Origin: Alphaproteobacteria bacterium | GTDB lineage: Bacteria; Pseudomonadota; Alphaproteobacteria; SP197 | Length of the DNA stretch: 64,000 bases | Assembly: GCA_964291265.2 (NCBI GenBank) | Contig: OZ219746.1 | Span: 128,001 to 192,000, forward strand | Reading direction: 5' to 3' | Part shown: piece by piece, positions 18,388-25,164 of the stretch | Numbering within the stretch: the first letter of the stretch is position 1 | How the letters are laid out: every line of letters starts with the position of its first letter | Program-made: the position numbers and the translations under genes | The notes under the pieces: generated by a model | Seen by the model: only the letters and a program-made list of their open reading frames with translations | Told to the model about the DNA's origin: nothing | Database searches by the model: none

Positions 18388-18424
18388 CAACGGCGCCTTG
18401 CCGCGAATCGCCAGGTGGATACAT

Positions 18425-18519
18425 GGAGGGGGATCGGTTCCGGTGGACCGCCCGGTCTTCAAAACCGGTGAGGGGCGCAAGGCGTGCCTGGTGGGTTCGA
18501 CTCCTGCCCCCTTCCGCCA
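18425..18519 (+). tRNA. selC: tRNA-Sec (anticodon UCA)
   Basis: 95 nt; 8-bp acceptor GGAGGGGG/CCCCTTCC + G-CCA; 6-bp D stem with 4-nt loop; anticodon arm CCGGT-CT-TCA-AA-ACCGG; long variable arm; TTCGACT T loop. Confidence 0.96.
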
Positions 18520-18531
18520 TCGCGGGGATTC

Positions 18532-20721
18532 ATGGATATCGTTCTGATCGGCGGTGGTCATGCCCACGTCGAGGTTCTGCGAAGCGCTCTCATGACACCC
18601 ATCTCCGGCGCGCGCTTCACCCTGGTCACGCGGGATGTCGCGACACCCTATTCGGGGATGATTCCCGGGTATCTCGCGGGACATTATTCCCGGGCGGAGG
18701 CGCACATCGATCTTGTGCCCCTTGCAGCGCGGGCCGGAGCCCGGCTGATCCATGCTGCCGCCACCGGCCTGGACCCCGAAGCGCGCCAGGTGCAATTCGA
18801 GAACCGTCCCCCCCTGCGTTTCGATGTCGCCTCGCTGAACATCGGTTCCCGACCGGCAAGCGACGGAATCGCCGGAGCCGGGGTGCACGGTCTGCCGGTC
18901 AAGCCAATCGACCGCTTTCTTGAACGCTGGACGGACGTGGAAGCGGTGGCGTGCAGGACCACAGGGCGCTACCGCGTGACGATGGTTGGTGGGGGTGCGG
19001 CCGGCGTCGAGGTCGCCATGGCTCTCCATCGCCGCCTCGCGGACCACATGGACGAGGCCGGGCGTGATTCGGCATCGCTCGTCTTCACCGTCGTGAGCGC
19101 CGATTCGGCCTTGCTGGCGGATCACACGTCCCGCGTGGGCAAGATGCTTGCCCGGGCCCTTGCCGGTGCCGGCATCGGCATCTGCCTGAATGCGCCTGTC
19201 GTGGCACTTGAGCATGGTCATGTCCGCCTGGATGACGGTTCCGCGTTGGAGAGTGATGTCACAGTCCTTGCCACCGGAGCTGCCGCGCCGGACTGGATCC
19301 GCCACACCGGACTCGCCGTTGACAGCAGGGGATTCGTCGCCGTCGATGGCTTCCTGCGTTCGATATCCCACCCGTACGTGTTCGCTGCCGGCGACATCGC
19401 CGGCTTCACACCAGGTGAGCTGCCCAAGAATGGCGTCCACGCCGTGCGCCAGGGGCCGTTTCTGAACAGCACCTTGAGGCGCCTTGCACACGGGCGGGAA
19501 CCAGTGGCCTACAGACCCCAGCGGCACACCCTGGCGCTTGTCTCGACCGGAAGGGCGCGCGCGGTGGCCTCACGGGGACCGGTCGCGGTGTCAGGGCGCT
19601 GGGTGTGGCGGTGGAAGGATCGCATCGACCGGCGGTGGATGCACCGCTATCGGGATCTGCCGATGATGGACGAGGTCCTTCCCATGCGGTGCGGCGGATG
19701 CGGCGCCAAGGTGCCGTCGCGCGTGCTCGAACGGGCGCTGAGCCGTCTGGCTGTTCCCGCCATGCCCGGTGTCCTGGTAGGCCTCGACGCGGCCGACGAC
19801 GCGGCGGTTCTCGCGCCGGTCCCGGGCAAGGTGATGGTGCAGACGGTCGACCAATTCCCGGCCTTCGTTGACGATCCCTGGCTGTTTGGCCGCATCGCGG
19901 CGGTTCACGCACTCTCCGATGTCCACGCCATGGGAGCCGAACCCCATGCCGCCATGGCACTCGTTGGTCTGGTTCCCGGCGAGGCAGACACCATGGAAGA
20001 CGATCTCGTGCACATGCTCGAAGGAGTCCTTTCGATCCTTCGCGAGGAGGGTTGCGCCCTGGTGGGCGGCCATACCGGGGAATCGGACCGCGCCGCCCTG
20101 GGGCTGGCCGTCACCGGTCATGTCGACGAGTCGGCGCTCATTCGTGCTTCGGGCCTCGAACGGGGTGACGTCCTTCTTCTGACAAGACCACTCGGCACCG
20201 GGACACTGCTCGCCGCCAACATGCGCGGCGAGGCCGAGGGTGCGTGGGTCGGGAGCATTCTCGCTGCCATGCAGCGCAGCAATGGACCGGCGGCGCGCCT
20301 TCTCGCCGGTGCCGGCGTCCGTTCGATGACGGACGTGACCGGTTTCGGGCTTGCCGGACACCTGTGGGACATGGCGCGGGCCTCGGGCGTCGCCATCGAG
20401 ATCGGCAGGGTCCCCGCCTATGCCGGGGCGCTCGAACTCCTCGCCCGGGGCCGGGCCAGCACGCTACATCCCGGCAATGTTGCGGCGCTGAAAGGCATCC
20501 TCGATGCCGATGTGGCCGACCCGATCCTGTTTGATCCGCAGACGGCCGGAGGACTCGTTGCCGGACTTCCGGAGGAAAGGGCAGATGAGGCGTTGGCCCT
20601 CCTCCATGAAGCAGGCGAGCTCGGCGCCGCGCTGATCGGACGGGTGACCGGTTCGGAGGCCGCAGCTCTCTCGCTCGGGCCGGGCGCTCAGCCGTTCACG
20701 TATTCCGGCACGAACATGTAG
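18532..20721 (+). CDS. selD: Selenide,water dikinase (Cys form) fused to an N-terminal FAD-dependent NADH-dehydrogenase-like domain
   Basis: GGGHAH, YSGMIPG, GGGAAGVE, FAAGD; then CGGCGAK, DDAAV, QTVD, SDVHAMG, GGHT, TDVTGFGLAGHL, DPQTAGGL. Confidence 0.93.
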   Translation: MDIVLIGGGHAHVEVLRSALMTPISGARFTLVTRDVATPYSGMIPGYLAGHYSRAEAHIDLVPLAARAGARLIHAAATGLDPEARQVQFENRPPLRFDVASLNIGSRPASDGIAGAGVHGLPVKPIDRFLERWTDVEAVACRTTGRYRVTMVGGGAAGVEVAMALHRRLADHMDEAGRDSASLVFTVVSADSALLADHTSRVGKMLARALAGAGIGICLNAPVVALEHGHVRLDDGSALESDVTVLATGAAAPDWIRHTGLAVDSRGFVAVDGFLRSISHPYVFAAGDIAGFTPGELPKNGVHAVRQGPFLNSTLRRLAHGREPVAYRPQRHTLALVSTGRARAVASRGPVAVSGRWVWRWKDRIDRRWMHRYRDLPMMDEVLPMRCGGCGAKVPSRVLERALSRLAVPAMPGVLVGLDAADDAAVLAPVPGKVMVQTVDQFPAFVDDPWLFGRIAAVHALSDVHAMGAEPHAAMALVGLVPGEADTMEDDLVHMLEGVLSILREEGCALVGGHTGESDRAALGLAVTGHVDESALIRASGLERGDVLLLTRPLGTGTLLAANMRGEAEGAWVGSILAAMQRSNGPAARLLAGAGVRSMTDVTGFGLAGHLWDMARASGVAIEIGRVPAYAGALELLARGRASTLHPGNVAALKGILDADVADPILFDPQTAGGLVAGLPEERADEALALLHEAGELGAALIGRVTGSEAAALSLGPGAQPFTYSGTNM

Positions 20722-21845
20722 GCTCCCGCGTCGCGGAGCGCCGGGTCGTCGCTCGAGAGACACGTCGAGCGCACATCCTGAATGATCCGGCCGGCCGCAG
20801 TCCGGGTCCAGAACCAGGCGATCACGGCTCCGGTATCGATGGCACCGGTGTAGGCTGCGGCAGACTCCATGTAGTAGGCCTTCAGGTCTTCCGAAGCGAG
20901 GCGCAACTGGTCGATTCCGGCCCCCCGAGCCTGCGTTTCGCCATCGAGCCAGGCGGTGAGCAGCCGGGCGGCGCCGGGCGCGTCCTTGCCCGATCCACCC
21001 AGGGCGGTGCGGCCGCGCCTTGCGACGCTCATCTCATACCAGGGACGCAGGCTGTCGACTTCCTGGAGCAACGGGCCGTCGCGGTTGACGGCCAGGAGGT
21101 CAAGGACATCCCGGTCCTCCCCGTCAGGCGGCGCCTCTTCGGTGAAGTCCTCGAGAACGGACCCGGCTGGTCTGTCGAAGAGGTCGAGGAGGGCCATGAG
21201 GACGCGCCGCTGGAACGGCGCATTGTCTGCCGTACCGAAGGGTCGACCCAGCGGAAACGGCACCCAGAGAGCGCGCGGCGGCCTCACATCCTCGGCCTGA
21301 CCGCGTACCAGAGCGATGAGTGCCGTCGCCAGTCCCTCGTCCTCCATGAATTTTGCCAGTCCGCTCACGGCGCACGTGCAAAGAGGTCAGACGGGGGCGA
21401 GGATGACCGTGTTGACGCCCTCCGCCTTCATCTCGCCGGCAAGGTGGCGCGCCGCGCTTTCCATGGCGAGGGGATCGGTCGCGCCCATGAACGAATAGTG
21501 TGTCTTCGCCACGGAACCGATTGCACCGGTGCCGGCGACCTCCAGGAGCCGCTGCAGTGGGAAGACGACATTGATGTCTTCCTGGAAACCCGTCCGATCG
21601 TGGGATGTCGAAACATGATCCTGAACGACATCCGCCGCATCCTCGACAGGAATGCTCCGGTAGTCTGCCGAGCCCTCGCTGAATGCCTGATCGCCACGCA
21701 GCCGCAGTCCGGCCGAGGACACGAGTGCGACCCGCCGCATGGCCGGCGGCGCCGGTTCGATCCAGGGCGAGCCCGGGATATCGGGACAGGAGAACTCGGT
21801 CAGGAATTCCGCCATGTCCGGGTTGAGGTCAGTCATGCGTACCAA
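20688..21845 (-). CDS. Selenoprotein, glycine/sarcosine/betaine/D-proline reductase B (GrdB/PrdB)-like, with C-terminal extension; Sec153 at UGA 21389-21387
   Basis: ORFs 21845-21387 and 21368-20688 share a frame: GTC TGA CCT CTT TGC ACG TGC GCC GTG AGC = V-U-P-L-C-T-C-A-V-S; VALVSSAG, D.N.VFPL.RL, YSFMG, PPRALWVPFPLGRP; RBS GAGGAGG before TTG. Confidence 0.88.
21352..21382 (-). promoter_or_regulatory. Putative bacterial SECIS hairpin
   Basis: TTTGC..CGC-CGTGA-GCG..GCAAA just 3' of the UGA; apical loop ~17 nt downstream with G in second position (folded by hand). Confidence 0.6.
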
Positions 21846-21861
21846 GGGCGCCTCCTCACGG

Positions 21862-23307
21862 TCAATTGACGCTGTCGACGGTTTCGAGCATCATCGGTGC
21901 GAGAGTATCGACCGTGCGTTCTGCCCAGTCCATCCGTGGCACCGCGTCCATCATGGCCTTCTGGCCGGCTTCCAGGCGATCCAGTTCGGCCGCCAGATCA
22001 ACGGTCACGATCTCTCCATCGGCGACCACGCGCTCGCCATCCACCCAGACATCCTTGACGGCACGTTCGGCAGCGACCACGATGAGTGTGCGCAGGGGCT
22101 CTCGGACTGGCCGCATCGCCGGGTGAGCGAGATCGATCGCCACGAGATCGGCCCTGGCTCCGACGTTGATCTTCCCGAGATCATTGCGCCCCAGGGCCGT
22201 CGCGCCGCCGACCGTGGCGGCATGAAAGATGTCCTGGTAGTCAAGATCGGAGACACTGCCGGCCACGAGGCGGGCGGCAACGGCCGCCGTGCGCATCTCG
22301 TCCAGCATGTTGTGCGGATAGGTGTCGGTGCCCAGGCCCATGACGATCCCGTGCCTCCGGTAACCGCCAAAGGTGTCAAGTGCGATTCCGCGGCGCGAGA
22401 ACACGGTCGGACAATGGGCAACGCCGGCGCCGCAGTCACGCATGAGATCAAGATCGCGACGTGCAGTCCAGTGCAGCCACGGATGATGATCAAGGAAGAT
22501 GCAATGGGCAATCGTGCTTCGTTCATCGAGCACCCCGATGTCGTGCATCCACTGGATCGGCGAGGCACCGTGACGCCTTTGCATCTCGTGGAACTCGGTC
22601 ACGGATTGCGCGGCATGGATCGTCCACGGGAGCTTGCGTTCCCTCGCCGCTGCGTGGCTGTCGCGCAGGGTCTCCTCGCTGCAGGTGTCGACCTGGGAGG
22701 GGGCAACCATGCCCGAAAGGCGGCCTGAGGGATGCTGGCGTGCCAGCTCGATGACGGCCAGCGCCCGCTCCAGCCCCCGGGCGCCGGCGCCTGGCAGCCA
22801 GTCGTAGTCGAGGCTGTGCCCGTCCGTCGTCAACCAGCGTGCATCGCGGAACATCGGTGCGGCGACGGCACGGATGCCGCTCGCAGCAAGGGCGTCGACC
22901 CAGCCGTCGTAGGGCATGGAAAGATCGACCGCCGTGGTGACTCCCGATAGCAGCAATTCGGCGAGCGTCACCTTGAGACAGGCCTCGCGTCCGTCATCGT
23001 CCGTCGGGTTGAAGACCGGCAGGTGTTCATAGAGCGAGCTGTGCCAGAAGCCCGGGGACCGTGTTTCGTCGGTGATCCCCTTGCGCATCGCCTCGCTCTG
23101 GGCGTGGGTGTGGATGTTGACGAGGCCGGGCATGACGAGGAGGCCCGAGCCGTCAATGCGCCGGCTGGCCGGAACGTCCAGGCCCTTGCCGACACGGGTG
23201 ATGGCGCCGTTGGCGAAGGCGAGGTCGGCATGCCGCAGGTAGACATGCCTTGTTCCGTCCCAGGCCACGAGCCAGGCAATATCGTGGATGAGGGTTGTGT
23301 CATGCAT
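21862..23307 (-). CDS. Metal-dependent amidohydrolase (Atz/Trz, chlorohydrolase/deaminase-like)
   Basis: MPGLVNIHTH, SGVTT, IHAAQS, AHC, HCP, LGTD, GA.ADLV. Confidence 0.9.
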   Translation of the reverse strand: MHDTTLIHDIAWLVAWDGTRHVYLRHADLAFANGAITRVGKGLDVPASRRIDGSGLLVMPGLVNIHTHAQSEAMRKGITDETRSPGFWHSSLYEHLPVFNPTDDDGREACLKVTLAELLLSGVTTAVDLSMPYDGWVDALAASGIRAVAAPMFRDARWLTTDGHSLDYDWLPGAGARGLERALAVIELARQHPSGRLSGMVAPSQVDTCSEETLRDSHAAARERKLPWTIHAAQSVTEFHEMQRRHGASPIQWMHDIGVLDERSTIAHCIFLDHHPWLHWTARRDLDLMRDCGAGVAHCPTVFSRRGIALDTFGGYRRHGIVMGLGTDTYPHNMLDEMRTAAVAARLVAGSVSDLDYQDIFHAATVGGATALGRNDLGKINVGARADLVAIDLAHPAMRPVREPLRTLIVVAAERAVKDVWVDGERVVADGEIVTVDLAAELDRLEAGQKAMMDAVPRMDWAERTVDTLAPMMLETVDSVN

Positions 23308-24129: not shown

Positions 24130-25164
24130 CTAGACCTTGACCGTGCCACCGGCCTCGCGCCATGCGGCAATGCCGCCGATCATGTGGCAGACATTGCGCA
24201 CGCCGCACTGGCGCGAACTCTCTACCGCCATCGCCGAACGCTCGCCGAAGGCGCAGTAGTAGACAAGTCGATGGCCAGGACGCCCGGCGAGGGCGCGCAG
24301 CGCCCCGCCGGGTTCGATCATCTCCGCGAGGCGATCGTATGGCGCATGCACCGAGCCGGGGATCGTTCCTTCGCGGGCCCGTTCACCGGCCTCACGCAGG
24401 TCGACGAGGATGTCGTCGGGCCGGCGGTCGTGCATCACATCGCGCGCGTGCATCGCGCACTCGGGATGCGCTTCGTCCTCTTGATCTCGGCCGACGCTGA
24501 GATTCGCCGGAACAGCCACGTCCATCATCCTGGGGTCGCTGAGATCGAGGCTGTCCATCAGTTCCGCGTATTCGGCGGGCGAGGCAACCTGGAGGCGAGG
24601 GTTGAAGCGCCTCTCCTCGCCGATGGTGCTCACCGTGTCACCCTTATAGTCGTGGCCGGGATAGACCAGGGTCTCGTCGGGCAGCGTCAGCAACTTGCCG
24701 AAGAGCGAGTCGTACTGCTGCAACGCGTCGCCGTTCTGGAAGTCTGTGCGGCCGGTGCCGCGGATCAGCAGCGTGTCGCCGGTGAAGACCCGGTCCGCCA
24801 TCACGAAGCTGTAGGAATCGGCGGTGTGCCCCGGCGTGTGGAGTGCGCGCAGGCTCACGCCCTCGACCTCGATCGGGTCGCCATCGTCAACGCGCATCGA
24901 GACCACGTTCACCGGCGCCTCGCGGCCCATCACGGTGATGCAACGGGTGCGGTCGCGCAGTGCCGCCATGCCGCTGATGTGGTCAGCGTGGACATGGGTA
25001 TCGAGCACCTTGGCAAGCGTGAGGTCAAGTTCGTCCAGCAGTGTGAGGTAGCGCTCCACCCGCTCCTCTACAGGGTCGATGATGAGCGCCTCGCCCCCGG
25101 CTTGCCCGCCCAGCAGGTAGGTGTAGGTGCCCGAATCCTGATGATGGAGTTGGCGAAAGATCAT
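24130..25164 (-). CDS. Persulfide dioxygenase (ETHE1-like MBL fold) fused to rhodanese
   Basis: THVHADHISG, TPGHT, FTGDTLLIRGTGRTDFQ, PGHDY; rhodanese YCAFGERS, GGIAAW. Confidence 0.92.
   Translation of the reverse strand: MIFRQLHHQDSGTYTYLLGGQAGGEALIIDPVEERVERYLTLLDELDLTLAKVLDTHVHADHISGMAALRDRTRCITVMGREAPVNVVSMRVDDGDPIEVEGVSLRALHTPGHTADSYSFVMADRVFTGDTLLIRGTGRTDFQNGDALQQYDSLFGKLLTLPDETLVYPGHDYKGDTVSTIGEERRFNPRLQVASPAEYAELMDSLDLSDPRMMDVAVPANLSVGRDQEDEAHPECAMHARDVMHDRRPDDILVDLREAGERAREGTIPGSVHAPYDRLAEMIEPGGALRALAGRPGHRLVYYCAFGERSAMAVESSRQCGVRNVCHMIGGIAAWREAGGTVKV

Follow-up and report, generated by a model that had tools for sequence, protein, structure and literature searches.

We analyzed a 64,000-nucleotide (nt) stretch of the alphaproteobacterial contig OZ219746.1 (hereafter the window), the minus strand of which carries, at 20688..21845, a long-form PrdB-like gene with an internal TGA. 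This is a real, well-supported selenoprotein gene, and it adds a member to a family that has already been catalogued, though under a misleading name. The gene consists of 385 codons and a stop, with a TTG start, a TGA stop and a predicted selenocysteine (Sec) at position 153, and it is very likely that UGA153 is read as Sec within one gene. The sole interruption of the frame 21845..20688 is the TGA at codon 153 (21387..21389, minus strand), which lies in the context ILAPV-U-PLCTCAVSG and gives a U-x-x-C motif with Cys156. Translation table 11 divides the gene into open reading frames (ORFs) of 152 and 226 amino acids, so that the first-pass annotation of this DNA was right both in joining two ORFs into one frame broken by a single TGA and in expecting ordinary annotation to split the gene. 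A Shine-Dalgarno-like GAGGAGG (21851..21857, minus strand) is found 5 nt before the TTG start, the start column of the window protein is the same as that of its homologues in the alignment, and the 385-residue product has a predicted mass of ~41.5 kDa.

A scan of genome contigs shows that TGA is the first in-frame stop at this codon in 23 of 23 related loci (40-90% identity), with neither TAA nor TAG being present at codon 153 in any of them, and that four genomic homologues (L039, L056, L057 and L058) have TGC or TGT at this position. Full-length database proteins of 369-436 amino acids contain C-x-x-C at the site; because U is printed as C in these sequences, however, the genomic codons are the firmer evidence of Sec or Cys. 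Among 41 genomes, comprising that of the window (G000, 100% complete) and 40 relatives, 29 have a match, including all 22 other members of the genus, and the long form is present in 28, with an internal TGA in 27 and none in one. Matches are also seen in 46 genomes of an even sample of 351 from the window's class, the long form being found in 27 of these (23 with TGA and four with TGC or TGT). Moreover, selB is present in 20 of the 22 other long TGA-form genomes, in one of four long Cys-form genomes and in one of 11 genomes having only the short Cys form (37 chosen genomes). In G000, adjacent selA (524 bits) and selB (380 bits) genes, both above their cut-offs, are located on another contig (G000:C2:1887184-1890404), and selA, selB, selD and tRNA-Sec are therefore all present in the window's genome.

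Conservation extends across the UGA. Residues 153-160, right after it, are better conserved (0.79) than any of eight other alignment blocks (0.32-0.66). In comparisons with seven close relatives, synonymous differences outnumber the non-synonymous ones in both residues 1-152 and residues 166-240, codons 153-165 exhibit zero amino-acid changes, and synonymous differences are not above non-synonymous ones in residues 241-385. The TGA site has no alternative letter in three public contig sets, two of which possibly represent the window's own source. When 1.84 billion cluster representatives were searched with a profile, 3,911 matched at E <= 0.001, short forms and split halves included, and most of the best 150 matches start just after, or stop at, the UGA column. 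At one locus (L023) the frame ends early, at codon 217. The interchange of Cys and Sec among homologues, conservation beyond the UGA and a genomic complement of Sec machinery, all of which follow from the earlier proposal, are thus present.

A selenocysteine insertion sequence (SECIS)-type hairpin can be drawn at 21354..21380 (minus strand), at nt +10 to +36 when counted from the first base of the UGA; it has a 5-nt apical loop (CGUGA) and so shows the expected arrangement of a hairpin just 3' of the UGA with a G early in its apical loop. Single-sequence folding finds this hairpin to be no more stable than shuffled sequences (z values of 1.01, 0.31 and -0.24). We therefore rely on a comparison of 45 Sec genes (the window gene included) with four Cys genes, from which near-duplicates were excluded and L077, which the motif pattern missed, was left out. 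Ala159 is encoded by GCC in 45 of 45 Sec genes and Val160 by GTG in 43, while all four codons are in use for Pro151 and Gly171. Between codon 158 (first base) and codon 162 (wobble base), the pair is C-G in 27 Sec genes, U-A in 12, A-U in two and U-G in one, with no pairing in three; in the Cys genes these bases pair in one of four. In the nine-pair structure, 84.8% of cells are paired, RNAalifold recovers the same upper stem, and the covariation score is 0.202 compared to 0.119 in shuffles (0/500) and at most 0.072 in slid controls, although kinship among the genes inflates these counts, and the structure had been derived from the very genes that were scored. Nevertheless, a single position with three types of base pair among Alpha- and Betaproteobacteria would be hard to obtain otherwise, and codon freezing together with compensatory changes supports a small SECIS-type hairpin. 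The SECIS-like element of the first-pass annotation therefore gains from covariation and frozen codons over the 45 Sec genes, but not from the folding energy of the window sequence alone.

Two further observations, together with the kinship among the compared sequences, weigh against a full-length selenoprotein. There is no selB match in two TGA-form genomes (G118 and G336), both of which are fragmented assemblies, and constraint is weaker in the C-terminal domain than in the core, with 22-29 non-synonymous and 13-25 synonymous codon differences. The alternative, in which the UGA is a true stop that leaves two separate genes or a pseudogene, would be consistent with the ordinary stability of the single-sequence hairpin, with the presence of GTG160 and ATG167 as possible translation restarts, and with the listing of the halves as separate proteins in databases. 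We consider it barely credible, however, given that the stop is TGA in every one of the 23 loci, that uninterrupted Cys homologues exist, that codons 153-160 are the most conserved block and the SECIS codons are frozen, and that the TGA form tracks the presence of selB.

The additional cysteine of the window's U-x-x-C-x-C motif, which had been taken as a defining feature, does not hold up as one. Codon 158 (21372..21374, minus strand) encodes Cys in the window; within the SECIS stem, its first position is paired with the wobble position of codon 162. The 45 Sec genes specify Arg (29 genes), Cys (14) or Ser (2) at this residue. Residue 158 aligns with an Arg of GrdB rather than with GrdB's third Cys, and Cys158 is found in the tree in the window's family and one betaproteobacterial pair. 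Cys156, by comparison, is invariant (72/72). A linker cysteine (C-P-V) present in most homologues is absent from the window's subclade, a crude count placing a Cys in the linker region of 108 of 129 homologues, and Cys158 might compensate for its loss. Because L010, L011, L051 and L052 carry both Cys158 and the linker cysteine, however, we do not regard Cys158 as defining. Codon 158 instead specifies an active-site-adjacent residue (Arg, Cys or Ser) that shifts together with a SECIS base pair, a case that warns against taking every extra Cys as catalytic.

The PrdB/GrdB-like catalytic core (21141..21806, minus strand; residues ~14-235) has a predicted Rossmann-like alpha/beta fold. It matches PF07355 with 36.9 bits (gathering cut-off 22), but only at profile positions 201-345 of 347, which represent the C-terminal half, and it falls below the cut-offs of both TIGR04483 (PrdB; 76.3 bits, equivalog cut-off 300) and TIGR01918 (40 bits, cut-off 65.45). 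The core shares 30% identity with PrdB over 229 columns (residues 14-230; E 9e-22), and hhalign aligns it to the C-terminal half of GrdB with a probability of 99.0%. Arg84 is nearly invariant (70/72), the compared PrdB having Asn at that position. The core is followed by an all-helical C-terminal domain (20691..21071, minus strand; residues 259-385) with conserved aromatic and acidic residues (E262, D320, Y325, E327 and W344), and the structure model of the whole protein has a predicted local distance difference test (pLDDT) score of 95.1 and a predicted template modeling (pTM) score of 0.93. No family or PDB match was found for this domain (best Foldseek E value of 1.7 for the domain model), and hhalign comparison with GrdE/PrdA gives a probability of 0.04%. 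Long forms constitute a separate clade in a quick tree (support 99), with Cys forms recurring at several places and the L012 protein grouping with that of an uncultured betaproteobacterium. These results bear out the earlier assignment to the PrdB/GrdB type and the claim of an extra C-terminal part, which amounts to ~130-140 residues, is modeled as all-helical, and contains the quoted motifs (LRPWY..RGRT..GSG, DLKAYY.E and WFW..TAAG) in conserved form.

Among characterized proteins, PrdB (TIGR04483; Clostridioides difficile and Peptoclostridium acidaminophilum WP_148296006.1) has its U-x-x-C at the same place and, like the window protein, does not possess the GrdB N-terminal half. The window protein differs from PrdB in its ~145 extra C-terminal residues, in the frequency of Cys forms and in that no PrdA-family gene was found in its genome. 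GrdB, GrdF and GrdH (PF07355, TIGR01918) have U-x-x-C-x-x-C in place of U-x-x-C-x-C (PMC13188914; citations here and below refer to the available parts of each source), and the window protein lacks both the N-terminal half and the third Cys of GrdB (about 430 amino acids). Short PrdB-like proteins of Alphaproteobacteria (~260-300 amino acids, e.g. WP_207415257.1) are likewise partner-free PF07355 proteins with Sec or Cys, but they match the profile only to position ~230, have no helical domain and fall outside the long-form clade.

Members of the family have been reported before. A Sargasso Sea survey lists 42 'PrdB' selenoproteins (PMC1088965), and the 2008 Global Ocean Sampling (GOS) selenoproteome gives 235 Sec sequences in 38 samples, with 110 Cys homologues, as 'proline reductase' (PMC2398784, Table 2). 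In Dataset S1 of the latter, PVUPNC occurs 21 times and PVUPLC 19 times, and several Sec-read records therein (e.g. JCVI_READ_726179, 802599 and 1118656) share the motifs and the C-terminal domain of the window protein, as judged by eye from P-V-U-P-x-C-T, a PPRALW-type segment and the C-terminal WY/RGRT/DLKAYY/WFW motifs. The heading '#Proline reductase' stands in part 21 of the dataset and the records in parts 21-23, so that their placement under this heading is presumed. The novelty implied by the first-pass annotation cannot be maintained, members with the same C-terminal domain having been published with U in 2008. The window's subclade differs from the GOS set in having Cys158 and no linker C-P-V cysteine. 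In the available parts of these ocean surveys, long and short forms are lumped and assigned the PrdB function, and neither the missing PrdA nor the extra domain is mentioned; similarly, the available parts of reviews list only canonical PrdB (PMC13188914, PMC9312934, PMC1794560). We found no functional study of the partner-free form in the literature, although supplements beyond GOS Dataset S1 could list the family.

The first-pass annotation had observed that the window contains none of the GrdE, PrdA and GrdA partners, and none was found in the whole genome either. Neither PF09338 (GrdE/PrdA) nor PF04723 (GrdA) has a match in G000, whereas the same search of plasmid NZ_CP007453.1, used as a positive control, gives three genes and one gene, respectively. 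No match to either family is seen in three further genomes (G013, G027 and G034), tblastn with the GrdE frames of the control plasmid finds nothing in the window's genome, and PF09338 has no match among the 351 class genomes in a search without a positive control of its own. Nor did we see GrdA/C/D or a PrdC-like electron donor conserved in the neighborhoods, GrdC, GrdD and PrdC not having been searched by family genome-wide.

These neighborhoods consist of the genes around ~50 homologues as called by an in-house model, a selection of which was scanned for families, and they contain no recurrent transporter or pathway operon. The long form is within 7 kb of selB in eight of 22 TGA-form genomes. 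Glutathione S-transferase (GST) genes are directly upstream in three lineages (L012/L014, L108/L109 and L111), and AhpD-like genes recur as neighbors in Betaproteobacteria; we regard such recurring neighbors as weak hints of function. In L015 (5352-5966; also L020 and L021), an AhpD-like gene with C-x-x-U, split at a TGA, lies directly upstream of the long form, so that this betaproteobacterial locus reads as a putative two-selenoprotein operon; the L012 counterpart has C-x-x-C. A TauD-family dioxygenase gene directly follows the long Cys-form gene on the same strand in L039 and L109. In the window, the gene converges on an Ndh-like oxidoreductase-SelD fusion gene (18532..20721, plus strand; TIGR00476 271.6 bits, cut-off 125; TIGR03169 426.3 bits, cut-off 310), the stop of which at 20721 yields a 34-bp overlap, and the tRNA-Sec gene (selC, anticodon TCA) is at 18424..18519 (plus strand), both as first described. 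An amidohydrolase gene (21862..23307, minus strand) ends 16 nt upstream of the PrdB-like gene, with which it is probably co-transcribed, and is conserved as a neighbor only within the window's genus. Elsewhere, L099 (G006:C4) has selA, selB and the selD fusion together, converging on the long-form gene, whereas selA-selB are on another contig in G000; in L049 (2563-6129) the Ndh-SelD frame has ~440 extra N-terminal codons without a Pfam match, perhaps a gene-call artefact.

As to function, we place about an even chance on a stand-alone Sec/Cys redox enzyme, recycled by thiols, that would reduce a pre-activated electrophile, with peroxides, S- or N-oxides and thiol adducts as the likeliest substrates. 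In proline reductase, the substrate is bound by the pyruvoyl group of PrdA and attacked at its alpha-carbon by the Sec of PrdB, the resulting selenoether being resolved by a cysteine of PrdB (PMC11229817, PMC3091704); the U151C variant of PrdB is inactive in proline reduction (PMC11229817). By analogy with this chemistry, the selenolate of Sec153, which sits where a helix begins after a strand of the core, would attack the substrate, Cys156 would resolve the adduct to a selenenyl-sulfide, and thioredoxin or glutathione would re-reduce it. The helical domain appears from the model to pack on the core, and likely replaces PrdA as a stabilizer or substrate lid. Without a pyruvoyl subunit there is no Schiff-base activation of a primary or secondary amino acid; hence the protein is very probably not a proline or glycine reductase, and only substrates needing no Schiff base remain. 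In addition, the recurrence of natural Cys forms, set against the inactivity of PrdB U151C, hints at chemistry easier than attack on carbon, and the lack of a recurrent transporter or pathway operon, with Sec machinery, GST and AhpD-like genes as neighbors, favors a housekeeping redox role over a catabolic one. A peroxidase activity has reportedly been described for GrdB, as named in the title of a reference (B55 in PMC3091704). The non-Stickland function proposed at the outset is a sound inference, and the reaction given for it here is a proposed one.

Several points count against this redox enzyme. A structural search (match over residues 32-243) finds the core fold to be Rossmann-like rather than thioredoxin-like, and retention of PrdB's conserved residues fits C-N or C-S cleavage equally well. 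The GST and AhpD neighbors are few, with none at the window's own locus, and their counts are raw; the GST neighbors also belong to different subfamilies, with 22-27% identity between lineages. Moreover, selenoprotein genes often lie near sel genes, and such proximity has little bearing on function. The retained PrdB core residues suggest a pyruvoyl-independent reductive lyase, in which Sec153 would attack an alpha-carbon bearing a built-in leaving group (a quaternary ammonium, as in glycine or proline betaine, a sulfonium or a halide), Cys156 would release the reduced acid, and the helical domain would bind the substrate in place of PrdA/GrdE. Arg84 could bind a carboxylate, the conserved residues E262, D320, Y325, E327 and W344 are available in the helical domain, and a paralogue (L035) is flanked by a polyamine-type ATP-binding cassette (ABC) transporter and a GMC oxidoreductase. 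There is also precedent in betaine reductase GrdI and the proposed fluoroacetate reductase FarE, which lack the pyruvoyl-forming cysteines (PMC10838667), but these known pyruvoyl-free enzymes still depend on a GrdE-family subunit, and the helical domain is unlike GrdE/PrdA. Given also that the neighborhoods have no conserved transporter, PrdC-like electron donor or GrdA/C/D, and that Cys versions are common despite the inactivity of PrdB U151C, we consider such a lyase possible but rather unlikely. Its boldest version, to which we give somewhat less credence still, is a single-chain, pyruvoyl-free selenoenzyme that would extend reductive C-N or C-S cleavage of the Stickland type to Proteobacteria that are not fermenting anaerobes, with a helical domain of undescribed fold that replaces PrdA and selects an onium substrate such as a betaine- or sulfonium-type osmolyte.

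An accessory role in selenium metabolism, in which the protein would serve the neighboring Ndh-SelD fusion by reducing selenium or delivering it, is suggested by the overlap with selD in the window's genus and by adjacency to selD or selA/selB in other families (L041, L042 and L093-L099). It is nonetheless improbable because three of four long Cys-form genomes have no selB match, 14 of 22 TGA-form genomes do not have the gene within 7 kb of selB, and in the window the gene converges on selD rather than being co-transcribed with it. Less probable again is a true D-proline or glycine reductase B subunit with an unrecognized partner or an undetected PrdA. PrdB is the closest characterized relative, at 30% identity over 229 columns, and databases apply the proline reductase name, but the TIGR04483 score of 76.3 is remote from the cut-off of 300, both the PF09338 search of G000, with its positive control, and tblastn with the GrdE ORFs were negative, and long forms stand in their own clade.

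Several other loci were noted. In G000, a UGSC-family gene with an in-frame TGA (L085; G000:C2:3712487-3712915), downstream of a thioredoxin-like fusion ORF, scores 113.5 bits with NF041046, below the cut-off of 125, and is a second likely selenoprotein of this genome. An in-frame TGA at G000:C2:684156 (minus strand) reads as G-H-U-G-G-C, is flanked on either side by sequence with coding bias, and may mark a further selenoprotein. At G000:C2:1242818-1243105 there is another, degenerate copy of the N-terminal PrdB-like part that is interrupted by TGA and TAG stops; many genomes of the genus instead carry one or two intact, divergent long-form paralogues. On the P. acidaminophilum plasmid (L091, 1441-3400; NZ_CP007453.1, ~258940-260984), the annotated prdB is preceded, in the same frame, by sequence resembling PrdA/GrdE (PF09338, E 8e-23). 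The two apparently form a PrdA-like/PrdB fusion, the upstream part of which is missing from the gene table. The window also contains, at 24130-25164 (minus strand), a metallo-beta-lactamase-fold and rhodanese fusion that we presume to be persulfide-dioxygenase-like.

The window gene is itself one more member of a catalogued family, but that family ranks with the most abundant selenoproteins of ocean metagenomes, the GOS survey having counted 235 sequences in 38 samples (PMC2398784, available parts). Its 'proline reductase' label persists even though the subunit that enables proline reduction was not found in 351 genomes of the class (PF09338), and gene callers cut its members in two. The C-terminal domain has no solved relative that Foldseek could find in the PDB, and the confident single-chain model together with natural Cys variants makes the function directly testable. 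Were the onium-cleaving, single-chain enzyme to prove correct, an abundant ocean selenoprotein would be an unrecognized source of volatile amines or sulfides.

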